A stretch of 52,977 nt of DNA from Patescibacteria group bacterium (GCA_043819035.1 JBDRFD010000009.1:1-52977); one strand, 5' to 3'. Counted from the first letter of the stretch, positions 13,480-47,762 are shown. Notes: generated from the letters alone by a model not told the origin. Program-made: numbers and translations.

Positions 13480-14286
13480 ATGTACAATAAGGGGGTGAAA
13501 TACAGACACTTTCTATTCTGCATAGTCTTCACCCTGGGTCTTCCACTCATTAGTTGTCATAAAAATGGTGAAACACCCGCCTCTTCCGTTTTGAAAGTAA
13601 GCGGAGCTAAGAGTTCTGTCTTTGCAACACTGCTCACGGCCAAACCAACTTCTGTTTCTCAGACAAGGCCGGGGGCATCTCTTGGAATGTATGTGAGTAT
13701 CTACCTGACACAAAGAATGATGATGGGAACCGCAAGCGCTCTGGAAGGTATTGATACGCAAATCCACCTTGCCCGTGCAGATTCGATCATTGAAGATGAA
13801 ACATTCACTCTCCTGCAGGAGTACGGAACCGTCCTTCAGGTAAATATAATCGATACGCTCAATCGATCCGTAGATCGTGAGAAGACGCTCGATAAGTACA
13901 CACTCTCACTGACACAAATGAATACTCGTATTGTACAAAAGCAGACCGAGCTTAAGCAGAAACTAGATGATATTGGGGAGAAGAGAAAGGTCGAACGGAA
14001 AGAAGTACGTGATATGGAGCGGATGATCAAGGATGCTCTTCGTGAAAAGGATTATGTCGCCGCAGGTCCTATACAGAAGGGACTTGCTTTGAAGGAAGCG
14101 AAGCTGGCCGGAACCGAATCCCTGGAGAAACAGACAGATAAAGTACTAGATATTGTCAAGGATCTGCTCGAAGTGGGAGAAGAGCGTCTACAGGCCATCA
14201 TTAAGAATCGTGAAATTTTGATCGCAGGACTGCAGGTGATTGATGTTCCCGGGATTGAGGAGCTGGGCATTGTGATTGAGGAATAA
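13480..14286 (+). CDS. coiled-coil lipoprotein, unknown function (adjacent to VirB4-like gene)
   Basis: ATG at 13480. Signal plus lipobox LPLISC. The C-terminal half is rich in heptad-like charged helices. Confidence 0.5.
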   Translation: MYNKGVKYRHFLFCIVFTLGLPLISCHKNGETPASSVLKVSGAKSSVFATLLTAKPTSVSQTRPGASLGMYVSIYLTQRMMMGTASALEGIDTQIHLARADSIIEDETFTLLQEYGTVLQVNIIDTLNRSVDREKTLDKYTLSLTQMNTRIVQKQTELKQKLDDIGEKRKVERKEVRDMERMIKDALREKDYVAAGPIQKGLALKEAKLAGTESLEKQTDKVLDIVKDLLEVGEERLQAIIKNREILIAGLQVIDVPGIEELGIVIEE

Positions 14287-14291
14287 AGCAT

Positions 14292-14373
14292 ATGGCTAAA
14301 TGGTTGGATGGCTGGATGGTCCTAAACTTGCCATTCGCTTGCGAACCATCCAGCCATTTAGCCATTTAGCCAT
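14292..14373. terminator. long hairpin built from 8-nt words (ATGGCTAA ATGGTTGG ATGGCTGG / complement)
   Basis: The left arm (14292-14320) is complementary to the right arm (14345-14373) with a few mismatches. Loop is CCTAAACTTGCCATTCGCTTGCGA. It lies between two + strand genes. Confidence 0.6.
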
Positions 14374-14467
14374 TATTATTATTACTAAACAGTACTAACA
14401 ATAATGCAACTTCGCTCAATAGAAGAATTTGCACTTTTCCGCTATAATAAAAGGATTTATTGAACCT

Positions 14468-16780
14468 ATGGCTCAAAAAAGCGCCAATACTCTGCCGGCA
14501 CAACAGATTAGGCTCAGCCGTGTGCTCGTTGCCGCGATTGATGACCTTCTTGGGCTGCAACGCAGGGTTGAAAATACGCTGAAGGCGGCAAAACTTGCGA
14601 AGAGGCAAAAATTGACCACTGAGGATCAGGAGGAACTGAAACGTTACGAAGAAGGACTGCAGAAAACGCTCGATATTATTGCGCCTGCGGGAATGGAGAT
14701 TAAACCGGATGAATTCATTCTCAACGATCTGCATGGTCGAGTCCTCTATGCACTGAACTGGCCGCATTACATCTATCCAAACTGGCTCTCGGAGGAAATC
14801 AACTTCGATGCACACATGAATATCAGTCAGTTTATCTATCCTGCAGACAATAAGACGATAATGCGGATGCTCAGGAAAAAGGTGACGCAAATGCGTTCAT
14901 CTATTCACATGCTGGAACAACGAGGTATTGTTCGTGATCCATCGCTGGAAGCGGCACTGCAAGATGCGGAGGAGCTCAGAGACCTTCTCACACGTGGACG
15001 TGAAAAGCTCTTCCAAATCGGACTCTATGTGACGATTTACTCAGATGATCAGGAGAAGCTCAAGAAACTCCAGACAGATATTGAATCGCTTCTCGGCGGA
15101 AAGCTGGTCATTACCAAACCTGCTTTTATGCAAATGGAACATGGCTGGATTTCCACACTCCCATTCGGTATCGATGAACTGGAAGTAAACCGCAATATGA
15201 ATACATCGCCTGCAGCTGCATGCTTCCCTTTCTCCAGCTCCGACCTAACCGACGATCACGGTATCCTTTACGGTATTAACCGGCACAACGACAGTCTCGT
15301 GATCTTTGACCGCTTCGATCTGCCAAATGCAAATGCAACTGTGTTCGCTACATCCGGAGCAGGTAAATCCTTCGCGGTGAAGCTAGAAATCCTACGATCG
15401 TTAATGTTTGACACCGATATGTACGTAATAGACCCGGAAAATGAGTACCGCGAGCTGTGTGAAACGGTGGATGGAACATACATTCCGATTTCTTTGGAGA
15501 GTTCCAACCGTATTAATCCGTTCGACCTTCCTAAAGCAGTCCGAGGAGAGGAAGCATCCGTTGGTGAAACACTCCGCGCATCGGTCATCAACCTGCACGG
15601 ACTCTTTAAGCTGATGCTGGGAACACTTACTCCTTCTGAAGACGGTATTCTTGATAAGGCAATCTTAGACACGTATGCGCTGAAAGGTATTTCACTCACA
15701 ACAGATAATCATGCTGAAAAAGAAGTTCCGACTCTATCGGACCTTGTCGATGTTCTACTTACAACGGATGGAGGTGAAAACATGGCGAAGACACTTTCGA
15801 AGTACACAGAAGGAAGTTACGCAGGACTCTTCGATAAACCGACAAATGTGCAGATTGAAAACCAGATGGTTGTCTTCCAGATTCGTGATTTGGAAGATCA
15901 ACTCCGACCCATCGCGATGTATGTGGTTATCAACCTAATTTGGAACCGCATCAGAGCAGACTTCAAGAAGCGCATGCTCGTGATCGATGAAGCATGGAGT
16001 CTGATTCAGCATGAAGACTCTGCGCGATTCCTCTATGGCTTGATCAAACGTGCGCGTAAGTACTACCTTGGTGTCACGACTATTACTCAAGATGTGGAAG
16101 ACTTCGTGAATTCTCCGTATGGAAAACCGATTATCACAAATGCATCGCTCCAGATTCTTTTCAAGCAATCCCCTAGCGCGATCGATAATCTCCAGAAGAT
16201 CTTCTATCTTACGGAGGGTGAAAAGTATCTGTTACTGGGATCCGAAGTGGGTCAAGGGCTTTTCTTCGCCGGAAACAGGCACGTGGCAATTCAAATCATC
16301 GCGAGTCCGCAGGAGGCCCGGATCATAACCACAAATCCCGAAGATATCTTGGCAAAGAAGGAATCCAAGAGACTTGCTGCAATAACTGATGAAAAGAACA
16401 AGGGTGGATCTTCCGATCGCACGCCCGCTCCACCAAAGAAAGAAACCGCACAAAGTACAGGCGATGCAGAAGCAAAAACGGAAAATAAACATGAACCACA
16501 ACCGGAACAGAATGAGCAACATCAAGAATCTGAAACCAAAGAAGCATCAATCGAAGATAAAGTGCTCCCGCTTCAAGATTCACTCAAGGAACATGAGCCC
16601 ATCAAGGAACTTCCGGTGGAAGAAACGGAAAAGACACAGAAGAAAACTAAAAAAGAAGGTATCCGAAAGCTCAATAAAAATATCACGCTAAAACAAGCAA
16701 CTGCACCACCTCCCGGGAGGAAAAAGAAAGAAGAAGAACTATTGGAGGCTGAAGAAGAGAAAAGTGAAGACGAAGAGTAA
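14468..16780 (+). CDS. VirB4/TrbE-type type IV secretion ATPase (Gram-positive conjugation-like architecture) with long Lys/Glu-rich tail
   Basis: IAPAG..I-type N-domain, FPF motif, Walker A FATSGAGKSF, Walker B MLVIDEAWSL. The last ~140 aa are low-complexity K/E/Q-rich. Confidence 0.8.
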   Translation: MAQKSANTLPAQQIRLSRVLVAAIDDLLGLQRRVENTLKAAKLAKRQKLTTEDQEELKRYEEGLQKTLDIIAPAGMEIKPDEFILNDLHGRVLYALNWPHYIYPNWLSEEINFDAHMNISQFIYPADNKTIMRMLRKKVTQMRSSIHMLEQRGIVRDPSLEAALQDAEELRDLLTRGREKLFQIGLYVTIYSDDQEKLKKLQTDIESLLGGKLVITKPAFMQMEHGWISTLPFGIDELEVNRNMNTSPAAACFPFSSSDLTDDHGILYGINRHNDSLVIFDRFDLPNANATVFATSGAGKSFAVKLEILRSLMFDTDMYVIDPENEYRELCETVDGTYIPISLESSNRINPFDLPKAVRGEEASVGETLRASVINLHGLFKLMLGTLTPSEDGILDKAILDTYALKGISLTTDNHAEKEVPTLSDLVDVLLTTDGGENMAKTLSKYTEGSYAGLFDKPTNVQIENQMVVFQIRDLEDQLRPIAMYVVINLIWNRIRADFKKRMLVIDEAWSLIQHEDSARFLYGLIKRARKYYLGVTTITQDVEDFVNSPYGKPIITNASLQILFKQSPSAIDNLQKIFYLTEGEKYLLLGSEVGQGLFFAGNRHVAIQIIASPQEARIITTNPEDILAKKESKRLAAITDEKNKGGSSDRTPAPPKKETAQSTGDAEAKTENKHEPQPEQNEQHQESETKEASIEDKVLPLQDSLKEHEPIKELPVEETEKTQKKTKKEGIRKLNKNITLKQATAPPPGRKKKEEELLEAEEEKSEDEE

Positions 16781-16782
16781 TT

Positions 16783-16836
16783 CAGAATTGAAAATGCAGA
16801 ATTAAGAATTAATTCTGAATTCTTAATTCTTAATTC
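16783..16836. terminator. heptamer-word hairpin (AGAATTA/AGAATTG vs AATTCTT)
   Basis: Complementary 7-nt word arms between the convergent VirB4-like (+) and DHH (-) gene ends. Confidence 0.6.
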
Positions 16837-17848
16837 ACGCAAGTACTTGCTCCACGGCACTCACATCGACATCACCATCAGCGGGTTCCACCACCTTCCA
16901 CCGCACCTCAGATTTAAGCGATCCGGGAAGAGAAAACCCTGCTGCTTTCTTGTGCCCTCCACCGCTGAATTTCCCCGCCATTGCAGCGACATCCACATCA
17001 TCACGAAGCGTGCGCAATGATCCTTTCACCATCCCCTCACGTTCAGACAGAATCAGAGAAAAACGCATGCCTGGTACGGCGTTGACATAATCGATTGCGC
17101 CGGTTAGTTGTGAAGTCTTCGCACCGGATGCTTTGAAATCGCTCTCCCTCACCGCAGAAATCGCACAACCCTCTTCCGTCAGGGTAATATTTTCCAGAAC
17201 TCTCCCCCATAATCTCAACGTGCTTAAGGATGCCGTGCGAAATACCGCCTTCACAATCTCCTGCTGACGCGCACCTGCCCTAAGCAAACGTGCAACGGTC
17301 CGATACACCCCTGCTGTGGTGTTGCTATGCAGCAAACCACCGGTGTCGGTGAACACACCGGTGAGCAAACACGTCGCGATATCGCTGTTCATTTCCCACC
17401 CAAGAAAATCGGCCAGTGCTACTACAATTTCACAACTGGAAGCCGCATCGGAATCAACGAGATTCACATTCGCATACTTAGTATTCGTCGGGTGATGATC
17501 AATATTGATTGTAAAAAATGACCCGTCGAATAGTTGCGGACACAAACTATCCAGACCAGTGAGTTTTGGTTCCGCAGCATCAAGGAATATGACCGTATCC
17601 CCTTCTATAAAGCTGCACTCTTCTTGCACTTTGAGCACATTTGGCAAAAACCTGAAGGTTTCCGGCACAGAATCAAGACAATGCAGTACTACAGGCACAT
17701 CCTTCAACGTTTTATCCAATAAAAGTCCCACCCCCAAAAGCGCCCCAATTGCATCACCATCGGGATTGCGATGGCATGCGCAGACCACACGCTTGGCTTG
17801 ATTCATATGCGCGAATGCCAGGTCAGCTTCCTGCTTTGTTATAGACAT
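16835..17848 (-). CDS. nrnA: DHH/DHHA1-family phosphoesterase (NrnA-like oligoribonuclease/pAp phosphatase)
   Basis: CHRNPDGDAIGA, DHH motif (NIDHHPTN), and DHHA1 motif GGGHKKAAG. Confidence 0.7.
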   Translation of the reverse strand: MSITKQEADLAFAHMNQAKRVVCACHRNPDGDAIGALLGVGLLLDKTLKDVPVVLHCLDSVPETFRFLPNVLKVQEECSFIEGDTVIFLDAAEPKLTGLDSLCPQLFDGSFFTINIDHHPTNTKYANVNLVDSDAASSCEIVVALADFLGWEMNSDIATCLLTGVFTDTGGLLHSNTTAGVYRTVARLLRAGARQQEIVKAVFRTASLSTLRLWGRVLENITLTEEGCAISAVRESDFKASGAKTSQLTGAIDYVNAVPGMRFSLILSEREGMVKGSLRTLRDDVDVAAMAGKFSGGGHKKAAGFSLPGSLKSEVRWKVVEPADGDVDVSAVEQVLA

Positions 17849-18159: not shown

Positions 18160-19041
18160 ATGCCCACTACGAAAAGTATCATCTTCTGCGACACACCGAA
18201 GTTTGCGGTCCCATCACTTGAAGCGCTCATTGCAGACTCTGCATTCTCAGTTGACCTCGTAATCACTCAGCCGGATAAGCCTGTCGGTCGCAAGCAAGAA
18301 CTAACATCCCCACCCGTAAAAAAATGCGCGCAATCACATGGAATTTTTGTGGCACAACCTGATAATCTCAACTCCGATTTATCCGCTCTAGAAAGCCATA
18401 ATCCTGACTTTCTAGTTACGGTTGCTTACGGTCAAATTCTAAAAGAACCAATCCTGGATCTTCCAAACATTGCGAGCGTGAATATCCATCCATCCCTCCT
18501 CCCCCACTGGCGGGGTGCCTCACCCATTCAGCATGCGATACTTGCCGGTGATCATGAGACAGGTGTAACTCTTCAAGAGATGACCGACGAACTTGATGCC
18601 GGTCCGATTCTCGCACAAGTAACAACTGTGATCGAAGAACGAGAGACTGCAACATCCCTCCACGATCGCTTAAGCACGCTCAGTGCTCAACTCCTTATAG
18701 ACACTCTGAAGAAACCTCTTGATCCAAAACCTCAAGATGAATCGCAGGTCACGTTTTGCCAGAAGCTCACGCGTAAAGATGGCGAAGTTGATCTATATGC
18801 GATGACTGCTGAAGAAATTGATCGGCACGTTCGTGCGCTTGTTCCTTGGCCCGGGGTTCGAGGATTTTTTAATGGAACTGAACTCAAACTCATTGAGACA
18901 TCACTGAAGGAAACTGCTGACTCTATTTCTGTCCACTGTGCAGGAGGTTCGATACTTCATCTTGTCCGGCTCCAACCACCCGGAAAAAAACTGATGATGG
19001 GGAGGGAATGGAAACGAGGAATGCATAGAAAGGAAACCTAA
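18160..19041 (+). CDS. fmt: methionyl-tRNA formyltransferase
   Basis: ATG at 18160 within ORF 17974-19041. IIFCDTPKFAVPSLEAL, ITQPDKPVGRK, NIHPSLLPHWRGASPIQHAIL.GD.ETGVT. Confidence 0.9.
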   Translation: MPTTKSIIFCDTPKFAVPSLEALIADSAFSVDLVITQPDKPVGRKQELTSPPVKKCAQSHGIFVAQPDNLNSDLSALESHNPDFLVTVAYGQILKEPILDLPNIASVNIHPSLLPHWRGASPIQHAILAGDHETGVTLQEMTDELDAGPILAQVTTVIEERETATSLHDRLSTLSAQLLIDTLKKPLDPKPQDESQVTFCQKLTRKDGEVDLYAMTAEEIDRHVRALVPWPGVRGFFNGTELKLIETSLKETADSISVHCAGGSILHLVRLQPPGKKLMMGREWKRGMHRKET

Positions 19042-19151
19042 GAATCCGAAGAAACCAAGGAATCCGAAGGGATGTAAAACAACTCCTTCGTTTTCTTTGG
19101 TTTCTTTGGTTTCCCTTCGGCCTGAGGCTCAGGGCCGAATGGCCTCGGATT
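19042..19151. terminator. hairpin built from 9-nt words (GAATCCGAA GAAACCAAG ... / TTCTTTGGTTTC)
   Basis: Complementary arms plus an outer stem GAATCCGAAG / CCTCGGATTC. It lies between convergent fmt (+) and the PUR-like gene (-). Confidence 0.6.
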
Positions 19152-21390: not shown

Positions 21391-21692
21391 GGATAAGGAG
21401 AAAATTTGGTGGAGAAATGTATAGTCCAGTTGGCTATTAACTGGGAATGGCAAACGCACCCGAACGAGGAGCCAAACTTTGGTACTTTAATTATGCGAGC
21501 AGATGGCGAGCGAGTCCTGAGTAAGCGAAGGACTCGACTCGTCTCTGCGAGCCAATCCAAGCAGCTTGTGTGGCGCGACGAGTGAGTTGCGTTTGCCTTG
21601 ATTTTTTTCTTTGTTTCTTTCTTTTTTTATCAAGAAAAAAAGAAAGAATAAGCAAGACTAAATGTTTTCTCCGGCAAATTTTCTCCTGATCC
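21391..21692. ncRNA. candidate structured RNA or MITE bounded by ~30-nt inverted repeats
   Basis: GGATAAGGAGAAAATTTGGTGGAGAAA (21391-) pairs with TTTCTCCGGCAAATTTTCTCCTGATCC (-21692). An inner helix pairs GGCAAACGCA (21449-21458) with TGCGTTTGCC (21588-21597), followed by a T-run. Internal hairpins carry GCGAAG-type loops. It sits in a 740-bp ORF-poor gap. Confidence 0.3.
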
Positions 21693-21952: not shown

Positions 21953-22297
21953 TTATCCGATACCACCCACAAATGCGCCAATAAACGTGATAATCGCTTC
22001 CGCAGCAATAGCCAGAACGAGCCCGACGAGTGCTGCAATAATGATCTTCTTGGCATCTTCTTTGCCCTGATCGTTCCCTCCGGATGCAATAAGTTTGATA
22101 GCTCCATAAACGATTGCAATCACCGCAGCTCCGGCTATCACAATGGCAAAGAAGTTTCCGATGCGGGCCGCAAGTACCACTGCAAAAGCGCTTCCCGCCG
22201 AACAGTCCGGATGAAGCTTTTCGCAATACACATCAAAAGCATTTGCATGCGCTTTTTCGATTATCAGGCCGACAAGAGCAGAGAAAGCAATCATCAT
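21953..22297 (-). CDS. VirB2/TrbC-like (T4SS pilin-like) small membrane protein
   Basis: Signal peptide (..EKAHA), a Cys pair, then two TM helices separated by a short charged loop (ASGGNDQGKEDAKK). There is a 4-nt overlap with the upstream gene. Confidence 0.5.
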   Translation of the reverse strand: MMIAFSALVGLIIEKAHANAFDVYCEKLHPDCSAGSAFAVVLAARIGNFFAIVIAGAAVIAIVYGAIKLIASGGNDQGKEDAKKIIIAALVGLVLAIAAEAIITFIGAFVGGIG

Positions 22298-22872
22298 AAA
22301 GGAAGATTCATAACAGAAACCACCAGCGCCTGAGCGACATTAACAACAATCGCGCCAATCACCGCCCAGATGATAATGCCACGGGCTTTGGTGAATTCGT
22401 CACTGCTGCCGCGGGCAAAAGCCATGCGAAAACCGGACGCAACCATCATAAGCGCAAAAACCGCGTTGAAGAGGACCACCATCGCATTCACTGCATATCC
22501 CATAAGGTGGAAGACGGGATCACTGCTTCCCATCAAACCACCGAATTGCGCACCAACAAAAGCCGCAATGCTTTGCGCGAGGAGTGTGATACCCAATCCC
22601 ACAAGCGCATAAACAATGGACATCTTCCCCTTTTGTATCTGGCCTTCTTCTCCCAGGCTCGTAAGCATTAGCGCACCGCCAACAACCACGAAAACAACAG
22701 ACAATCCTGCGGCAACGGAAACCAGTAAGTTCGCAACGGGGCCGACTGCGATTGCAAGAACATTAGCAGGTCCGCACCCGCCGACATACGCGCACGGATT
22801 AGCCATCGCAGAAGCGGAGAGAGGAAAAACACCAACCGTGAAACCGATCTGGAGCGGGATAAGTTTTTTCAT
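22294..22872 (-). CDS. tandemly duplicated VirB2/TrbC-like pilin-type membrane protein
   Basis: Signal peptide and a Cys pair (CAYVGGC). Two successive TM-loop-TM units (..SLGEEGQIQKGKM.. and ..ARGSSDEFTKARG..). ATGA overlaps at both ends. Confidence 0.5.
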   Translation of the reverse strand: MKKLIPLQIGFTVGVFPLSASAMANPCAYVGGCGPANVLAIAVGPVANLLVSVAAGLSVVFVVVGGALMLTSLGEEGQIQKGKMSIVYALVGLGITLLAQSIAAFVGAQFGGLMGSSDPVFHLMGYAVNAMVVLFNAVFALMMVASGFRMAFARGSSDEFTKARGIIIWAVIGAIVVNVAQALVVSVMNLPL

Positions 22873-23345
22873 ACAAAGAAACTTGCATTGAGGAAGTTAA
22901 GTATCACACCAACAAAAACCAGTGCAATCAGCCCGATAATCGCCCACTTGATGTGCTCGATCCATTTGCTTCGTCCGCTCTGGTCTCCTCCAAAAACAAT
23001 AATCATGCCGCCGCTCACCAGTACCCACAGCGTTACAAGACCTACTGCAACAAGAACAAGCCAATTCCACGCTCTTTGTACATATACTAAAAATGGCAAG
23101 ACGCCCCCTACAGCTACAGGAACATTGGCATCACCTGCAATCGGCTCGATGAGTGGAACAGCATTCTGTTTTTGTTCGACATGATGTCTATTAAAATATA
23201 TACATCCTTCAATTTCACATTGTTCTTTTGATACTCCTTCTGGACAAATTCCATCAGGATGAGCACAAGCAAAAGCCATTTCAGAACTTGTGAAGCTAAC
23301 GAGTATCCCCAGCAATACGCCGGTGATGATTAGACGCAAAGACAT
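22869..23345 (-). CDS. VirB2/TrbC-like pilin-type membrane protein with Cys-rich ectodomain
   Basis: ATG at 23345 (MSLRLIITGVLLGILV signal). Six-Cys segment CAHPDGICPEGVSKEQCEIEGC. The C-terminal TM-loop-TM reads VSGGMIIVFGGDQSGRSKWIEHIKWAIIGL. Confidence 0.5.
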   Translation of the reverse strand: MSLRLIITGVLLGILVSFTSSEMAFACAHPDGICPEGVSKEQCEIEGCIYFNRHHVEQKQNAVPLIEPIAGDANVPVAVGGVLPFLVYVQRAWNWLVLVAVGLVTLWVLVSGGMIIVFGGDQSGRSKWIEHIKWAIIGLIALVFVGVILNFLNASFFV

Positions 23346-23566
23346 CAAAGTATTATACCTTAAATTTGGCTTTATTTCGAGCTGAAAATGGGCATCTATA
23401 AGGCAAGAGAATGACAAAGAATCTTGCATCGAGGTTCAATTCTACGTAGCATTCTCGGGCTCCTTCACACACGGACAGCGCTTCCACCTTCGTCCCGTAT
23501 GCGCGGGACTACGGTTGACAGGTTCTCTGCGGGAGATGGATGCGATATACCGTTCATTTCAATCAT

Positions 23567-28017: not shown

Positions 28018-28088
28018 AGTGAATAGTGAATAGTGAATAGTGAAAAATGCCCCTCTTATATTACACACTATTAACTTTTAACTATTCA
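28018..28088. repeat. heptamer-word hairpin (GTGAATA x3 ... CACTATT/AACTATTCAC)
   Basis: The left arm GTGAATAGTGAATAGTGAATAGTG is imperfectly complementary to CACTATTAACTTTTAACTATTCAC. It sits immediately upstream of the tatD start. Confidence 0.55.
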
Positions 28089-28267
28089 CTGTTAGTTCTT
28101 GCTTGAGTTTCTTCTGCATCAACAACATCTGCAAAATGATTACGAGTACATTGTTGAATGAAACCTCGAAAATCACCCGGTGATGGTGCTTCTCTCTGAC
28201 ACCTCCGGCATAGAATTGAATCAGTAGTTACAAGACACTCGTCTGATCGGCCACAGTTAACTTCCAT
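28082..28267 (-). CDS. possible small Cys-rich protein (61 aa)
   Basis: The Cys pattern C-x5-C...C-x2-C suggests a zinc ribbon. Weak support. Confidence 0.25.
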   Translation of the reverse strand: MEVNCGRSDECLVTTDSILCRRCQREAPSPGDFRGFIQQCTRNHFADVVDAEETQARTNSE

Positions 28268-33156: not shown

Positions 33157-33210
33157 AGGTAATCATTGTAGCAGAATCATATTTTTTGGGTGTTTTGAAA
33201 TAATAAAAAA

Positions 33211-33306
33211 GAAACCAAAGAAACCAAGGAATCCAAAGAAACCAAAGGAGAAGTGAAACAGTGCCCATTGGTTTCTTAGGTTTCTTTGGTTTCCTTGGAT
33301 TCCTTG
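33211..33306. repeat. hairpin of 9-nt words (GAAACCAAA GAAACCAAG GAATCCAAA ... / complement) in a divergent gap
   Basis: The arms are complementary. It lies between the ruvB start (33156, -) and the next + strand gene start, so it is not in a terminator position. Confidence 0.6.
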
Positions 33307-34256: not shown

Positions 34257-34679
34257 GTGGCAAAACCTGTCTCCAAAGTTATCAAGGCTCAAGCACGCGG
34301 CGGGCAGGCAAATCCAGCTCCTCCTCTGGGGCCTGTACTTGGACAAGCAGGGATCGATATCAATGCGTTTTGTACTCAATTTAATGAGAAGACGAAGGAT
34401 CGCATGGGCCAGGTGATTCCGGTGGTTATCAAAGTCTACGATGATCGCAGCTTCAGCTTCGAACTCAAGCAACCTCCTGCTGCCAACTTGATCATGGAAA
34501 AAGCGAAAATTCAGAAAGGAAGTGGCGAACCTAACAAGACCAAAGTGGGGAAGATCACAAAGGCACAGCTCAAAGAAATTGCGGAAACAAAAATGTCCGA
34601 CCTTAATACTACAAACGTTGAACAGGCTATGAAGATCATTGAGGGAACTGCTAAAAATATGGGCGTGACAGTAGAGTAA
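34257..34679 (+). CDS. rplK: 50S ribosomal protein L11
   Basis: In-frame GTG at 34257 gives [10 protein letters not shown]...[23 protein letters not shown]. 140 aa. Confidence 0.9.
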
Positions 34680-34782
34680 AAAGATAAAGAAGAAAAAAAA
34701 AGAAAAAGAGGAAAGATTTGGAGAGAAATAGAATCCTTTTTTTCTTTTTTTGCCTTTTTATCTTTTTTCCCTCTACGAAGAC
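34680..34782. terminator. purine-run / pyrimidine-run hairpin after rplK
   Basis: AAAGATAAAGAAGAAAAAAAAAGAAAAAGAGG faces CCTTTTTTTCTTTTTTTGCCTTTTTATCTTTTTTCCCTC. A similar A/G-run hairpin occurs at 21613-21648. Confidence 0.5.
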
Positions 34783-36579: not shown

Positions 36580-37611
36580 TTACATGAGGATATTTTTCAC
36601 ATCATTAAACGTTTCAACCCTCACCAATCTCGATCTCAGCTCCTTCGCCCCGTCAATTCCTTTGACGTAACTGGCCAGATGTTTACGCATTTCGAGCATT
36701 CCCCTTCTCTCTCCTTTTAATTTAACCGCGAGTTCGCAGTGTTCGATGATCAGAGGAATTTTTTCCTCGAAGCTTAGTTGTTCGATGGTTGGAATGAACT
36801 TCGAAGAATCGTCTAACGTCCAACGTCTAACGACGCGAGATACTAGACGTTTGACGTTAGACTTTGGACTTCTCAGCGCCTCACACACATCTTTCATTAT
36901 CCATGGATTTCCGAATGTGGCGCGCCCGATCATTACACCATCTAGGTTTCCGAGTTTTTCGACTGCAACTTCTGCTGAAGTCACATCGCCATTTCCGATC
37001 ACCGGCACTGAAACTTCCTTCTTCAGTTCATAAATCGGTTTCCAATCTGCTTCTCCTCCATACTTTTGAGCATAAGTTCTGCCATGAATCGCCAGCGCAT
37101 CAGCACCGGCTTCTATGAGCTTCGAGCAGAACGTTATGAGTTGATCCGGAGATTCCCACCCTAAACGTGTCTTCACGCTTACAGGGATCTTCACCGCCTC
37201 TTTTGTTGCCTGAACTAATTCTGCCGCAAGTTGCGGCTCACGCATCAATGCAGAACCGTGACACGATGACGTGACACGTGCTGCGGGGCATCCCATATTT
37301 ATATCTATTCCATCCGCACCCATTTCCTCGACAATTTTAGCAGCCGAGAGGAAATTCTCCGGCTTCTTCCCAAAGACCTGCACAATGAAGGGGTGCTCTA
37401 GTTTTGGATCGAAGTTCATCATACCCATCGTCTTCTTCGCTCCATAATGAATAGCATCGGTACTCAAGAATTCGGAATAGACAATCACCTCTGGCGCTAG
37501 CTTTTTGATGAGCTGGCGGTACGCCGCGTCCGTTACTCCCGCCATGGGAGCCAGTGCAACAATGGGCCGGTCTGTTGTACTCCAAGCAAACATGAGTGAA
37601 GAGACTATCAA
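36580..37611 (-). CDS. dus: tRNA-dihydrouridine synthase
   Basis: LAPMAGVTD.AYR, NMGCPA, the FMN-binding TIM-barrel pattern, and a C-terminal helical domain. Confidence 0.85.
   Translation of the reverse strand: MIVSSLMFAWSTTDRPIVALAPMAGVTDAAYRQLIKKLAPEVIVYSEFLSTDAIHYGAKKTMGMMNFDPKLEHPFIVQVFGKKPENFLSAAKIVEEMGADGIDINMGCPAARVTSSCHGSALMREPQLAAELVQATKEAVKIPVSVKTRLGWESPDQLITFCSKLIEAGADALAIHGRTYAQKYGGEADWKPIYELKKEVSVPVIGNGDVTSAEVAVEKLGNLDGVMIGRATFGNPWIMKDVCEALRSPKSNVKRLVSRVVRRWTLDDSSKFIPTIEQLSFEEKIPLIIEHCELAVKLKGERRGMLEMRKHLASYVKGIDGAKELRSRLVRVETFNDVKNILM
36810..36863. repeat. 54-nt heptamer-word hairpin embedded in frame in dus
   Basis: CGTCTAACGTCCAACGTCTAACG ... TAGACGTTTGACGTTAGAC. The 19-nt arms match at 18 of 19 positions. 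It encodes an 18-aa Arg/Val-rich insert (..KSNVKRLVSRVVRRWTLDD..). Confidence 0.7.
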
Positions 37612-39608: not shown

Positions 39609-39989
39609 CTATGATTTCTTAGAAGCCTGGAGCTTCCTGATAAGGGAATTCAACATTTTCATAACTCCAAACAAAAGACTGCTGATCTTTCTGTAATCGA
39701 AGTCCTTTGTTTGTGGAAGTCTCTTAGCAATTTCAATCTGCGTCTCCAATTCTGCGCCTGAAGAATATGCAATATTCAGAAACTTGATGTAATCCTTTTT
39801 GGTCTTCCGAGACTTCCCCTCTGCAATGTTGGAGGGAATGGAAACCGCCGATCGTCTCAACTGACTCGTGAGACCGTAGAGTTCTTCTTTAGGAAACTTC
39901 TGTGTAAGTTCATACAGAATAGTTACGAGCTCAACGGACTGCTGCCAGACGATGAGGTCTCTGTACGAGCGAATCTGTGCTGATGCCAT
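39609..39989 (-). CDS. four-helix-bundle protein (23S rRNA intervening-sequence protein family)
   Basis: YRDLIVWQ.S..L....Y.LT..FPKEE.YGLTSQLRR.AVSIPSNIAEG. Bracketed by MITE copies 2 and 3. Confidence 0.8.
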   Translation of the reverse strand: MASAQIRSYRDLIVWQQSVELVTILYELTQKFPKEELYGLTSQLRRSAVSIPSNIAEGKSRKTKKDYIKFLNIAYSSGAELETQIEIAKRLPQTKDFDYRKISSLLFGVMKMLNSLIRKLQASKKS

Positions 39990-43743: not shown

Positions 43744-43935
43744 AACAAATTATAATACCACATTCTATAACGCATTTTTCACCCCCCAATATCCATAACA
43801 AACAACATCCCGACCAAGTCAATTTCACAACATTCTTAATAAATTGACAACCACATGCCCACCCCAAAGAGCCGCTTTTCTGCTATAATAATAGGATTTC
43901 CTCGTAGTGAGTTTTTATCACACTATTGAAACTCT

Positions 43936-44562
43936 ATGCCTATCGAACCTGTAAAAATTCCACAGAATGTCCAGATCGAGGACCGGCTAATCGGGCCGAT
44001 CACTCTCAGACAGGTTATTATCTGTCTCATTGGCGGAGGTATGAGTTTTGTAATCTGGAATATGATGAAGTCAGTCGGAATGGTGACTATTATACACTTT
44101 GCCTTTTCATGGATTCCATTTGTTATCGCAGCGGCATTTGCATTTATTAAATTCCAAAACTTATCTCTTCTACGGATCATTCTTCTGATGATAGAAAAAG
44201 GCCAAAAACCTTCAAAGCGAACATTCGGACCCCGTGAAGGAATTGCGATTAATGTTCGCACGTATTTCCACACCGAAAAACAGAAGCAGAAGTATTCCAT
44301 TGATCAAACCAGAGTTACAGAGGATAAATTCCAACACTTGAGTTCTGTGTTAGATAAAGAATCCGCTCAAGCTCAGGAATCACATACTGAAACCGATAAA
44401 AGCGAACTCCATGATGAAACGGGAAAGAGCACACCGGTTGATCCAAAGCGAGTGTCGGTGGAACCTTCCGCAAAGTCACAGCCAAACATTGATGGGATGA
44501 GTCCTTCTTCTATGCAATCAAACACTACTGTAACCAAGGAATCTTCACCTTCTGTTCCCTAA
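43936..44562 (+). CDS. PrgI-like (VirB3-type) T4SS membrane protein with disordered tail
   Basis: N-terminal VKIPQNVQIEDRLIGPITLRQVIICLIGG followed by two TM helices, as in PrgI-family proteins. The C-terminal ~90 aa are polar and low-complexity. Confidence 0.55.
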   Translation: MPIEPVKIPQNVQIEDRLIGPITLRQVIICLIGGGMSFVIWNMMKSVGMVTIIHFAFSWIPFVIAAAFAFIKFQNLSLLRIILLMIEKGQKPSKRTFGPREGIAINVRTYFHTEKQKQKYSIDQTRVTEDKFQHLSSVLDKESAQAQESHTETDKSELHDETGKSTPVDPKRVSVEPSAKSQPNIDGMSPSSMQSNTTVTKESSPSVP

Positions 44563-44563
44563 T

Positions 44564-45382
44564 ATGCCAAATGACCCTTTGCCACAGGCAGAAGAAGAAA
44601 TGACCGCTTCCACTTACAAAGAAGAGGAATTAGACGATAAATTCGAAGAGGAAGAAGAACCGGCCAAGAAGAAAACGTTCATCGAAAAAATAAAATGTAC
44701 GGTACGTCAGCGGAAAAGGAACGAAAAAGCAACTACACAGCGCTATCTGCCAATCGCGGAAATCCGCAATGATACGGTGGTTCTGAAAAACGGTGGCTTG
44801 CGTGCGGTTCTGTCGGTTGAACCTCTTAATTTCAACCTCAAGAGCGAAACCGAACAGGAAGGAATCATCGCACGCTACCAAAACTTCCTCAACACGCTCA
44901 CTTTCCCCATTCAGATTGTGGTGGCATCCACACGGGTAAACATCGATCCGTACATCAATAAGATTCGCATGCGCGCGGGTTCACAGAAGAATGAACTCTT
45001 GCGGCAGCAATCGTTGCTGTACGCGACATTTGTGGAGAAACTCGTAGAAGTGGCAGATATCATGCAGAAGGATTTTTACGTCGTTGTGCCTCAGGATGAC
45101 CAGCCCCCCAAAAGAAACTCCATATTACAATTCATGAGATGGTTTAAAACGGAAGACACAGCTGCCAAAATCAGCCAGCGCAATCAACGCTTCCACCAGC
45201 GAAGTGTGCTCCTGCGAGACCGCGTTAACCTGGTGCAATCAAGCCTTCATAATGTTGGGATTCAATCTCGTCGCTTGAACACCCAGGAGCTCATTGAAAC
45301 GTACTATCAGCTATATAATCCTCGTACAAGTCAGGAGCAGAAATTACCGAGCAACCTCAATACAGAAGAATTGGTGTTATAA
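44564..45382 (+). CDS. T4SS-associated protein resembling the N-terminal domain of VirB4/TrsE-type ATPases (no ATPase domain)
   Basis: YLPIAEIRNDTVVLKNGGLRAVLSVEPLNFNLKSETEQEGIIARYQNFLNTLTFPIQIVV pattern. It starts 1 nt after the PrgI-like stop. No Walker motifs. Confidence 0.5.
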   Translation: MPNDPLPQAEEEMTASTYKEEELDDKFEEEEEPAKKKTFIEKIKCTVRQRKRNEKATTQRYLPIAEIRNDTVVLKNGGLRAVLSVEPLNFNLKSETEQEGIIARYQNFLNTLTFPIQIVVASTRVNIDPYINKIRMRAGSQKNELLRQQSLLYATFVEKLVEVADIMQKDFYVVVPQDDQPPKRNSILQFMRWFKTEDTAAKISQRNQRFHQRSVLLRDRVNLVQSSLHNVGIQSRRLNTQELIETYYQLYNPRTSQEQKLPSNLNTEELVL

Positions 45383-45644: not shown

Positions 45645-45884
45645 GATTACATCCATTATTCAATTCGAAAAAGCATTTCTTAATTTGGTATTAGGTGATT
45701 AGCCCCCAATGCAGCGGCGACGCAGCGTCGCCGATGCGTCTTGTCAAACTAGTCTAAAAGAATCTCTCCAAATTCTTGACATTATTCATCAGAATTGCGA
45801 TCCTCAAATCGATCAGTTGCTGCTCGTGCAAGGGCGCTGCTCTCAAAATATCTTATTTCTTCCCACTTGCACCATTTCTTTACT

Positions 45885-47375
45885 ATGGTTACTGCAGCAA
45901 CAACGAACAAAATCATGGAAGACCTCCTGAAGGCTTCCCCTGCTATTATCCGTGTCCGACCGGGTGAACTTGTGGAGGGGGTGGTCGTTTTCCGTGGCAA
46001 GAACAAGCTCCTATTGGATATTGAAGGCGGATCGACAGGAATTGTCTCCGGTCGTGAATTGCGAGATTCCTTCAATACATTTAGAAATCTCCAATTGGGA
46101 GACAAAGTGAGCGCCATGGTACTCGAGGAAGAGAACAGCGAGGGGATGGTGGTGCTGAGCCTGCGCATGGCCAGCCAGCAAAAAGCATGGGATCGTTTCC
46201 ATGACTTGGTGGACGGCGAAAGGACGATGGAGTTTGTGCCACAGGAAGCAAACAAAGGAGGACTCCTGGCAAATATTGATGGTATTCGTACATTCCTTCC
46301 CGTCAGCCAACTTGCTCCCGTGCACTACCCGCGCGTGAATAATGCAGACGCCTCGGAGATCATTAATCGCCTCCTTAAGTACGTCGGTTACAGGTTCACC
46401 GTCAAAATTATCACAATGGATGAGGAAGCGGGGAAAATAGTCGTTTCCGAACGAGAAGCCATGTCAGAGGAACGTGCGAAATCATTCGAGAAACTCAAGA
46501 TCGGTGATGCGAAGGAAGGGGTGGTGACAGGTATCGTGAAGTTCGGTCTCTTTGTGGCCTTCGAAGGATTGGAGGGGCTTGTCCATATTTCAGAAATTGC
46601 ATGGGGCCATGTAAAAAATCCCGCAGAACTTGCCGAAGTGGGAGATAAAGTTACGGTAAAAATCATCGGCGTCGATAGCAACAAACTTTCCCTCTCCATA
46701 AAGCAACTTACCAAGGATCCCTGGGAAGAAATCGCCGAGCACTATCCGGTTGGGAAGAAAGTCTCCGGAACGGTGGTGCGCTTCGCGGACTACGGAGCCT
46801 TCATCAAGCTCGAAAAGGATATCAACGGACTCGTGCACCTTACGGAACTTGCTCACCACAAAGTCACCGATCCGTCTGAAGTTCTAACCATCGGGCAGAA
46901 ATTGGATGCACAGGTGATCAATATAGATGTGGACGAACGTCGTATCGGACTATCCATAAAAGCTCTTAAACCGATTGATAAAGAAACACTCGAGCGTATT
47001 AAAAAGGATCGCGAAGAGGAGGAGGCCAAGAAGAAGGAATCCGAGGGAAAGGAAGAAGAAAAAAAGAAAAAAATGGAATCTGAGAAAGCCGAGGAAGAAC
47101 CAACAGCAGCAGATGCAGAGCAGGCGTTCCAGCCTGCGGAACCAGAGGTATCCACGCCTGTGGGACCAGAGAAAAGTAAAACAGAGAAAAAGAAACCACC
47201 TACCAAGGAAAAGCCAGTTGAAGAAGTTCCATCAAAAGAAGGAACCTTCGTCGCTTCTAAGACCGGTAAGAAGTATTACGCAGTGGACTCTGCTCAAGGA
47301 AAGAAGATCAAAGAGGAAAACAGGGTTTACTTCAAAGATGAAAAGGAGGCAGAGAAGGGTGGGTATAGCAATTAG
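45885..47375 (+). CDS. rpsA: 30S ribosomal protein S1 (four S1 domains) with Lys/Glu-rich C-terminal extension
   Basis: Four repeats of the G..V.G.V......G.FV......G..H.SE pattern. The start is taken as ATG 45885 within ORF 45795-47375. The tail covers 46971-47375. Confidence 0.8.
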   Translation: MVTAATTNKIMEDLLKASPAIIRVRPGELVEGVVVFRGKNKLLLDIEGGSTGIVSGRELRDSFNTFRNLQLGDKVSAMVLEEENSEGMVVLSLRMASQQKAWDRFHDLVDGERTMEFVPQEANKGGLLANIDGIRTFLPVSQLAPVHYPRVNNADASEIINRLLKYVGYRFTVKIITMDEEAGKIVVSEREAMSEERAKSFEKLKIGDAKEGVVTGIVKFGLFVAFEGLEGLVHISEIAWGHVKNPAELAEVGDKVTVKIIGVDSNKLSLSIKQLTKDPWEEIAEHYPVGKKVSGTVVRFADYGAFIKLEKDINGLVHLTELAHHKVTDPSEVLTIGQKLDAQVINIDVDERRIGLSIKALKPIDKETLERIKKDREEEEAKKKESEGKEEEKKKKMESEKAEEEPTAADAEQAFQPAEPEVSTPVGPEKSKTEKKKPPTKEKPVEEVPSKEGTFVASKTGKKYYAVDSAQGKKIKEENRVYFKDEKEAEKGGYSN

Positions 47376-47379
47376 CTTG

Positions 47380-47409
47380 TTAGCAGTTAGCTAATTAGCT
47401 AACTGCTAA
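47380..47409. terminator. perfect 30-nt palindrome TTAGCAGTTAGCTAATTAGCTAACTGCTAA
   Basis: Verified as self-reverse-complementary. It lies between convergent rpsA (+) and the HIT gene (-). Confidence 0.7.
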
Positions 47410-47420
47410 TTGCTAACATG

Positions 47421-47762
47421 CTAATCTTTCAGCGTTTGCTCACTCAACAAATGCAAATGTAGAAAGAAGACCTCTTGCCCCCCACCTTTCCCAACGTGGA
47501 ACGTGAGTTTGTAGCCGTCAATCCCCTTCTCCTTTGCAAACATCTGAGCTTTACGGATAAGCATAAGCGGAACATGTTCAGTCTCGTCAGTTAAGTCTGC
47601 AATCGAAGGTACGAAGTCTTCCTCCTTTTTTGCAATGAGAAGTATGTGAGTCGGAGCCTTGGGATTTATGTCTTTGAAAATAAAAACATCCTCATCTTCG
47701 TAGACTGTGTCTGCTGGTATCTCTTTCCGCAGGATTTTGTGGAAGATAGTTTCATCATTCAT
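47421..47762 (-). CDS. HIT-family (histidine triad) nucleotide hydrolase
   Basis: ATG at 47762 (MNDETIFHKILRKEIPA..). Histidine triad HLHLHLL near the C-terminus. Confidence 0.85.
   Translation of the reverse strand: MNDETIFHKILRKEIPADTVYEDEDVFIFKDINPKAPTHILLIAKKEEDFVPSIADLTDETEHVPLMLIRKAQMFAKEKGIDGYKLTFHVGKGGGQEVFFLHLHLLSEQTLKD

Follow-up and report, generated by a model that had tools for sequence, protein, structure and literature searches.

The question raised by the stretch analysed here, 52,977 nucleotides of DNA from a Patescibacteria group bacterium (GCA_043819035.1, JBDRFD010000009.1:1-52977; hereafter the window), is what kind of machine is served by a VirB4-like ATPase that is encoded among housekeeping genes. 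A preliminary description, made from the sequence alone, had presented the gene as a stand-alone ATPase with a coiled-coil lipoprotein partner and a Lys/Glu-rich tail. We consider it very probable that the gene (virB4, positions 14468 to 16780, plus strand) encodes the motor ATPase of a chromosomal, non-conjugative type IV secretion system (T4SS) that is near-universal in Patescibacteria, which also go by the name Candidate Phyla Radiation (CPR). The names of homologs place the genome in Peregrinibacteria/Peribacteraceae, a group that NCBI lists under Peregrinibacteriota. GTDB files Peribacterales under the class Gracilibacteria, and TGA-recoded relatives in our same-class sample agree with that placement. 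Because the genome (1.29 Mb) is 94.8% complete and lies in 100 contigs, missing families are reported below as not found.

The open reading frame (ORF) spans positions 14429 to 16780, and the ATG at 14468 agrees with database protein P0001, so that the product has 770 amino acids (aa) instead of the 771 first claimed. Pfam, NCBIfam and PDB matches identify it as a short (TrsE-type) VirB4-family ATPase, whose conserved core extends to about nucleotide 16363. All four motifs that had been named were found, and in an alignment of 23 homologs they were invariant: IAP (ORF residues 84–86), FPF (266–268), Walker A FATSGAGKSF (15344–15373, plus strand; invariant at G297, A298, G299, K300 and S301) and Walker B MLVIDEAW (15974–15997, plus strand; invariant at D507, E508, A509 and W510). 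In profile searches, which had been proposed for the family placement, the protein passed the curated cut-offs of VirB4 models. It matched Pfam P-loop_TraG (1e-27, 97.3 bits, cut-off 25.8), AAA_10 and TraC_F_IV (29.8 bits, cut-off 28.1), and passed the NCBIfam equivalog conju_CD1110 ('VirB4-like conjugal transfer ATPase, CD1110 family'; 365.2 bits, cut-off 325). The closest solved structure was the C-terminal domain (CTD) of Thermoanaerobacter pseudethanolicus VirB4 (4AG5; 3.4e-46 over 365 residues), followed by TrwK of R388 (5e-5). A tblastn comparison with 72,556 plasmids matched 4,535 records, the top matches being those of monoderms (Streptomyces, Bacillales, Clostridia, enterococci and staphylococcal TraE/TrsE), with 27–35% identity across 83–90% of the core; diderm TraC/VirB4 matches covered just 41–66% of it. 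The original assignment to a Gram-positive-type (MPF_FATA-like) VirB4 was thus borne out, because conju_CD1110 was passed, the best plasmid matches were monoderm, and Pfam DUF87, the HerA central domain, stayed under its cut-off. No membrane segment was found in the protein; by analogy with VirB4 of other T4SSs, it would act as a hexameric, membrane-associated ATPase.

The ATPase does not stand alone, and at the scale of the window the lipoprotein is not its only companion. Pfam scans of 37 long non-overlapping ORFs, chosen among the window's 82 ORFs that reach 100 aa, detected three VirB2-like pilin genes on the minus strand (21953–22297, 22294–22872 and 22869–23429; Pfam T4SS_pilin 3.9e-8, 9e-14 and 5.3e-7, above the cut-off). 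The middle gene has two pilin domains, and the genome search gives four matches in the array; two of the pilins also weakly match the Mbov_0395 pilin-like family (NCBIfam), and genome-wide T4SS_pilin has 17 matches on 8 contigs. On the plus strand, prgI (43936–44562; Pfam PrgI 4.4e-9, above the cut-off) encodes a VirB3-like membrane protein with three transmembrane-like segments and a low-complexity C-terminal half. It is followed by a TrsD-like gene of 272 aa (44564–45382, plus strand), which matches NCBIfam TrsD, VirB4_plasma and VirB4_CagE, as well as the first half (positions 4–183) of Pfam TraC_F_IV. The pilin array lies 5.2 kb from virB4, and the prgI-trsD pair 27.8 kb downstream on the same strand. 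As first described, no VirD4, VirB6, VirB8 or relaxase was found in the window by the scans of the 37 ORFs. Two VirD4-like proteins, 841 and 745 aa long and with the domains T4SS-DNA_transf and TrwB_AAD_bind, are encoded on other contigs (C36 and C80), where their genes sit beside rpsB-tsf and among zinc-finger paralogs. No VirB6 was found genome-wide, and four relaxase families (Relaxase, Mob_Pre, TrwC and Rep_trans) were without a match, the search not extending to the MOBC and MOBM types. The gene for the 745-aa protein (C80:1486-11261, locus L065) is flanked by four paralogs of ~570–590 aa, three with C-terminal treble-clef zinc-finger matches and one with a RING-like match, all weak and below the cut-off; a homolog of one of these paralogs was found near a lipoprotein-like gene in another family.

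We further examined how the gene is distributed among relatives. VirB4 is single in its own genome and single-copy in 41/41 family genomes, which represent 41 genera (62–78% identity). It was found in 97/101 class genomes (42–72% identity, some read with in-frame TGA) and in 116/121 sampled genomes of the phylum (43–58% identity outside the class). The TrsD-like gene is likewise single-copy in 41/41 family genomes. All 11 other loci that were examined have prgI directly ahead of trsD, a gene that runs off the contig in one of them. In the 10 genomes with virB4 and trsD on a common contig, both genes always have the same orientation, with trsD 21–81 kb downstream. The immediate neighbours of virB4 are housekeeping genes (argS, a DHH-family gene, fmt and metG), and the DHH/DHHA1 (NrnA-like) gene, located at 16835–17848 on the minus strand of the window, is convergent with virB4 in 25/29 family loci. 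GC content near virB4 is unremarkable. With housekeeping neighbours and the four relaxase families unmatched, no complete conjugative element was seen around the gene. A quick maximum-likelihood tree was built from 29 rows, with every fourth family ortholog and every third ortholog from other classes; in it, the 18 Patescibacteria rows, including the query, lay beyond one branch (SH-aLRT 99), and the VirD4-like proteins of the same genome split off with a support of 100. These results indicate that virB4 is a vertically inherited core gene and not a conjugative remnant. Among class relatives, the VirB4 orthologs of several families hold 6–33 in-frame TGA codons, as is expected in lineages in which TGA codes for an amino acid; the genes of the window are open under table 11.

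The separation of virB4 from a TrsD-like gene bears on the domain structure of the ATPase. The VirB4 profile aligns to residues 211–781 of a plasmid VirB4 from Clostridium perfringens (783 aa), which directly follows PrgI, and the comparison with a 783-aa VirB4 of the CD1110 family extends over 552 columns (E 4e-54). Because the alignment begins at residue 211, the present VirB4 appears to be without ~150 N-terminal residues of the long form. In the window, the TrsD-like gene follows prgI, and virB4 is not adjacent. Its product scored 3.1e-9 and 36.9 bits against NCBIfam TrsD (NF041427), under the cut-off of 200, and by HHalign its profile matched a 274-aa gene just 5΄ of a 621-aa Pontibacillus plasmid VirB4 (99.4%, 208 columns). 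Plasmids of the pIP501 and pGO1 types show a corresponding gene order, namely a small gene, a gene of ~210–225 aa and a TrsE/TraE of 653–672 aa. Against models of long VirB4 proteins, the TrsD-like protein and VirB4 cover consecutive, non-overlapping stretches: positions 89–237 and 276–893 of VirB4_plasma, 3–184 and 251–724 of VirB4_CagE, and 4–183 and 248–374 of TraC_F_IV, respectively. We infer on good grounds from these coordinates and gene orders that the TrsD-like gene probably corresponds to the detached N-terminal module of long VirB4.

The gene directly upstream of virB4 encodes the coiled-coil lipoprotein and lies on the same strand, starting at 13480 (ATG) or 13495 (GTG) and ending at 14286; in the database, the protein (P0121, 263 aa) begins at the latter position. 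The product has a lipobox, whose L18 and C21 recur in no fewer than 90% of 42 lipoprotein homologs. It matched no Pfam or NCBIfam family, and individual homologs match solely coiled-coil families, weakly; for Pfam PspA_IM30, the protein of the window had no match and 9/42 homologs had weak ones (best E 8e-6). A PDB profile search with the lipoprotein alignment returned coiled-coil noise alone (best E 0.063), and the ESM Atlas model (pTM 0.61) was nearest to PspA-like helical hairpins at a TM of 0.54, below the acceptance bar. A word-indexed search found 51 homologs, every one from Peregrinibacteria-type sources, and an exhaustive comparison of the profile with 1.84 billion representatives gave 570 matches at E ≤ 0.001 and 200 at E ≤ 1e-30. 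Of the 29 family loci with a whole virB4, 28 have the lipoprotein gene directly 5΄ of it in the same orientation, with gaps of 18–225 nt; the exception (L035) has no lipoprotein gene within 1.5 kb of virB4. Outside the family, weaker matches to the lipoprotein profile (E 1e-4 to 1e-22) occur in 40/92 genomes. The lipoprotein can therefore be called a partner in the sense of conserved adjacency, within one family. It may be an extracytoplasmic accessory, a guess to which we give low weight; direct contact with VirB4 is unlikely, since the lipoprotein would be extracytoplasmic and VirB4 cytoplasmic. The VirB7/9/10 core is lacking in monoderm systems. VirB7-type lipoproteins are small, are encoded in the T4SS locus and bind the core complex; the present protein is helical and has ~263 aa; no hidden Markov model (HMM) exists for VirB7 (Quinonero-Coronel et al. 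2025, PMC12102498).

Of 10 contexts of weak lipoprotein-like homologs in other families, 4 include a pilin gene no more than ~4 kb away. At the loci L071, L072, L074 and L077, the weak homologs (260–370 aa, some with an N-terminal membrane helix replacing the lipobox) stand beside a block consisting of a glycosyltransferase gene, rpsP, a pilin gene and a gene for a KH protein. The genome analysed here carries this block on contig C22, without a lipoprotein gene. A link between lipoprotein and pilin was not counted as support, because the four contexts are not independent: three of them have one syntenic glycosyltransferase-rpsP-pilin-KH block in common.

Between the lipoprotein gene and virB4 lie two elements, of which the first is a long terminator-like hairpin of 8-nt tandem words at 14292–14373 (–50.9 kcal/mol, z –7.4, 0/200 shuffles as good). 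A second hairpin, of 7-nt tandem words, lies at 16779–16836 between the convergent virB4 and DHH-family genes; the region 16778–16845 folds with –15.4 kcal/mol on the plus strand and –17.9 on the minus strand (z –3.6 and –4.4), and the hairpin looks like a bidirectional terminator. Hairpins of periodic words do flank the gene, as had been noted, but they are not special to the lipoprotein-ATPase pair. Tandem-word hairpins occur at no fewer than nine sites of the window (14292, 16779, 19033, 21602, 28018, 33208, 34678, 36810 and 47366), some of them at the 3΄ ends of genes and others in spacers between divergent genes; they are a property of the genome. The spacer between the lipoprotein gene and virB4 is structured (z ≤ –2.5) in 9/28 orthologous loci, with words differing each time. 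Intergenic hairpins with arms of 7–9-nt tandem words were recorded in the window at 1016–1063, 19033–19113, 21602–21648, 28018–28094, 33208–33306, 34678–34768, 36810–36862 and 47366–47425. Elsewhere in the window, a member of the 23S rRNA intervening-sequence protein family (126 aa, 39609–39989, minus strand) has a weak bAvd-like match.

The second element, located between the hairpin and virB4, is a 28-nt promoter-like motif (14433–14460, plus strand) consisting of a T-tract, GCTATAAT (an extended –10, with TATAAT at 14443–14448) and AGGATTT. The anchor for this element was found in 27/28 other family loci, each from another genus; one of the 27, L014, looks unlike the rest. With a position weight matrix (PWM) from which the own genome was excluded, the top two matches in the genome were those upstream of prgI (43874–43901, plus strand; 35.3 bits) and virB4 (34.7 bits), compared with maxima of 15.8–20.5 bits in three shuffled genomes. 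Upstream of prgI in other genera, the best match exceeded 20.5 bits in 7/11 loci. Of the other 13 matches above the shuffled maximum, two lie ahead of pilin loci and four ahead of large surface proteins, which are of the fn3/Big and DUF4215/SLH types. A sortase, an M23 peptidase and a response regulator are preceded by one match each, and the remaining four stand before proteins that have no assigned family. The sites of the motif elsewhere in the genome include C37:5484, C11:8585, C57:18717, C21:15052, C30:2814, C1:627, C84:8971, C79:2850, C93:12968, C10:11951, C95:2706, C5:30099 and C3:1923. This distribution points to a promoter class common to T4SS and surface genes, which may mark a cell-surface regulon, and the dispersed T4SS genes are probably co-regulated via the common motif. 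A regulon specific to the T4SS was rejected, since most strong matches precede non-T4SS surface or envelope genes. Many TGCTAYAAT (extended –10-like) sites of the genome (39 sites) have an ATG or GTG just 6–12 nt further on, an arrangement suggesting that mRNAs with a very short leader or none at all are frequent here.

At its other end, virB4 encodes the Lys/Glu-rich tail, which is present much as described (~140 aa) and comprises 138 aa (16364–16777, plus strand) with 37% K+E and 12% hydrophobic residues. Column conservation drops to 0–0.2 beyond ORF residue ~645, and from its composition and the absence of conservation the low-complexity tail is probably disordered. Solved and plasmid VirB4 proteins stop where the core stops, so that a long tail is indeed unusual for the family. 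Tail lengths were compared among orthologs: 0–200 aa in 29 family orthologs (median 90), 9–269 aa in the 120 best database homologs (median 106), 110 and 144 aa in two same-class orthologs, and 3–31 aa in the 25 best-scoring orthologs from other classes (median 8). Therefore, the tail is atypical for VirB4 generally and typical for its own class. Among the 120 best homologs, 112 have a tail of at least 30 aa, with a composition of 19.8% E, 13.3% A, 11.3% P, 10.8% K and 0% W/C. Apart from one short pattern, its sequence is unconserved: a regular expression for LxQATxP, represented here by LKQATAP (16688–16708, plus strand), matched 28/120 tails at 15–46 residues before the C-end and 0/120 cores. 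Within the genome (820 crude genes), the tail is the longest C-terminal charged stretch of low hydrophobicity; such stretches of at least 60 aa occur in 56 of these genes, 16 of them at the C-terminus. Ribosomal proteins S1 (window 45795–47375) and S16 (contig C22:10111-10644) also bear long K/E/A/P-rich C-terminal extensions.

How the system is assembled and what it does can be proposed by analogy. A cytoplasmic VirB4 hexamer would be docked at the membrane via PrgI and TrsD, with TrsD supplying the N-terminal module that is missing from the short VirB4. VirB4 would spend ATP on assembling a VirB2-type pilus or channel, and the cell would use this pilus or channel to interact with a host or to take material from it; the system would transfer none of its own DNA. 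The tail would be a class-specific disordered extension, its most likely role being that of a flexible docking arm, which is a low-weight guess, and the lipoprotein would be a family-specific neighbour and possibly the accessory considered above.

Several results weigh against this proposal or parts of it. No TrbL/VirB6 match was found in the genome, nor was any convincing polytopic protein seen as a VirB6 candidate near the T4SS genes or downstream of the promoter motif; VirB8 gave no match in the Pfam scans of the window, a genome-wide search not having been made. With neither a VirB6 nor a VirB8 analogue found, a complete channel is not listable from sequence. Compared directly, the TrsD-like protein resembles the N-terminal end of the long Clostridium VirB4 weakly (residues 21–155, E 0.0088, probability 4.6%), which is why the detached-module interpretation leans on HMM coordinates and plasmid gene order. 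Moreover, when TrsD was considered as a possible paralog of the N-domain of the present VirB4, BLASTP and HHalign showed no significant similarity between the TrsD-like family and that VirB4; a PDB profile search with the TrsD alignment gave nothing (best E 0.47). In the VirB4 tree, the order of the monoderm, archaeal and diderm references is a polytomy with long branches. T4SS genes follow only 4 of the 15 motif matches that exceed the shuffled maximum. The lipoprotein gene is probably not co-transcribed with virB4, because it has no promoter-like motif and a strong hairpin lies at its 3΄ side, and outside the family a lipoprotein-like gene and virB4 on one contig are 19–860 kb apart.

The peculiarities of the locus can also be read jointly, as a T4SS remodelled in Peribacteraceae and related Gracilibacteria, in which lipoprotein subunit, tail arm and regulon would belong together. 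The coiled-coil lipoprotein would then be a new extracytoplasmic subunit replacing the undetectable VirB6/VirB8, the LxQATxP tail would recruit substrates or partners, a role that elsewhere falls to the coupling protein, and the promoter element would unite the scattered genes and the surface proteins as one regulon. We regard this combination as rather unlikely.

A smaller chance still is given to a self-contained module of two genes, in which the lipoprotein and VirB4 would work apart from pilin, PrgI, TrsD and VirD4, for example in ATPase-driven uptake or export with the lipoprotein on the outside as partner. The same-strand adjacency with gaps of at most 225 nt in 28/29 family loci is what such a module would show, and virB4 is apart from the other T4SS genes in the class (as also reported in PMC12102498), the class with the long tail being the one with the detached virB4. 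However, this adjacency is confined to one family, a strong hairpin separates the two genes, and the two best copies of the motif belong to virB4 and prgI, with none at the lipoprotein gene. Furthermore, a VirB4 without a membrane segment and an extracytoplasmic lipoprotein would still require a link through the membrane, and PrgI and TrsD have been kept as single copies in 41/41 genomes.

It is very improbable that virB4 is an orphan, non-functional remnant of a decayed Gram-positive conjugative element, either a plasmid or an integrative and conjugative element (ICE). Such an origin would agree with the failure to find a relaxase or VirB6 and with conjugative-plasmid VirB4s being the nearest non-CPR relatives, but a single copy with 62–78% identity in 41 genera and invariant Walker motifs, conserved neighbours and long-range synteny, occurrence in 116/121 genomes of the phylum and unremarkable GC content argue otherwise. 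In addition, neither frameshifts or relaxed selection in the orthologs nor a patchy presence tracking mobile elements was seen. That a non-T4SS ATPase of the HerA/FtsK type was mistaken for a VirB4 has the least in its favour of all, since the DUF87 match, after which many homologs carry the name 'DUF87 domain-containing protein' in their sources, is weak (E 0.0017, 18.9 bits, under the cut-off of 23.2) while VirB4 models pass theirs, the alignment to the CD1110-family VirB4 extends over 552 columns, and the VirD4-like proteins fall outside as a fully supported outgroup in the tree.

The T4SS of Patescibacteria is currently thought to be central to the life of these ultra-small bacteria on other cells. 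In the one species tested, Ca. Southlakia epibionticum, the system is reported to be essential and to be required for epibiotic growth (Wang et al. 2023, as cited in PMC12102498 and PMC12857230). A review from 2025 (PMC12857230) and a preprint from 2026 likewise describe such systems as essential in Ca. S. epibionticum and as possible pili at host contact. The window holds nothing new in kind; it is a clean example of the dispersed layout of the Gracilibacteria type. Its leads are the family-fixed lipoprotein gene beside virB4, the hypervariable, probably disordered tail with a short motif, confined to the class with the detached virB4, and the promoter-like motif of the virB4, prgI, pilin and surface-protein genes, which could define a set switched on for host contact. 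No mention was found in the main text of PMC12102498 of the lipoprotein gene fixed 5΄ of virB4, of the LxQATxP tail or of the motif common to virB4 and prgI; that text uses 'lipoprotein' once, about VirB7, and has neither 'disordered' nor 'low complexity'. A search of the literature on VirB4 in Patescibacteria or the Candidate Phyla Radiation and on type IV secretion in Peregrinibacteria found no paper on the tail or the lipoprotein.

Among known systems, the TrsD-TrsE and TraD-TraE genes of conjugative plasmids of the staphylococcal pGO1 and enterococcal pIP501 types (MPF_FATA) resemble the present genes in having a short VirB4 (the core here has ~630 aa) and a pair of PrgI and TrsD-like genes. 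In these plasmids, however, the three genes are contiguous and accompanied by a relaxase and a type IV coupling protein (T4CP), whereas virB4 here is far from prgI-trsD, and the identity between TrsE and the present VirB4 is ~24%. The long VirB4 of the CD1110 family, from clostridial and other Bacillota elements, is similar in that the equivalog was passed and 552 columns could be aligned (E 4e-54); it differs in its ~210 N-terminal residues without counterpart here, its lack of a tail, its position directly after PrgI and its occurrence in an element with relaxase and VirD4. The CTD of T. pseudethanolicus VirB4 (4AG5/4AG6) corresponds to query residues 258–622 on chain residues 2–388 (3.4e-46), a likeness at the level of sequence only, and has nothing corresponding to the tail. 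In the ICE of Mycoplasma (Mbov_0397 VirB4 and Mbov_0395 pilin-like protein), the VirB4 model VirB4_plasma matches our protein at 4.4e-79 and also the TrsD-like protein; those proteins belong to mobile elements, and every score obtained here was below the curated cut-off. A conjugative MPF_FATA element was considered for our locus and set aside: no relaxase was found, the VirD4-like genes are elsewhere, and synteny is kept across 41 genera.

The closest counterpart is the chromosomal T4SS of the Patescibacteria clade. VirB4 was reported in 2,417/3,035 Patescibacteria assemblies, with 2,425 of 2,474 VirB4 homologs forming one clade nested in MPF_FATA; TrsD, VirB3 and arrays of VirB2-like pilins were described, T4CP genes being mostly far from virB4 and relaxases few (PMC12102498). 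For Gracilibacteria, the same study reports a virB4 without TrsD or VirB3 nearby and the absence of VirB6 (PMC12102498). Our locus resembles the clade-wide system in its VirB4 clade, its chromosomal position, the failure to find a relaxase, its TrsD, PrgI and pilin-array genes and its distant T4CP genes, and it shares with the Gracilibacteria pattern the location of TrsD and VirB3 away from virB4 and an undetected VirB6.

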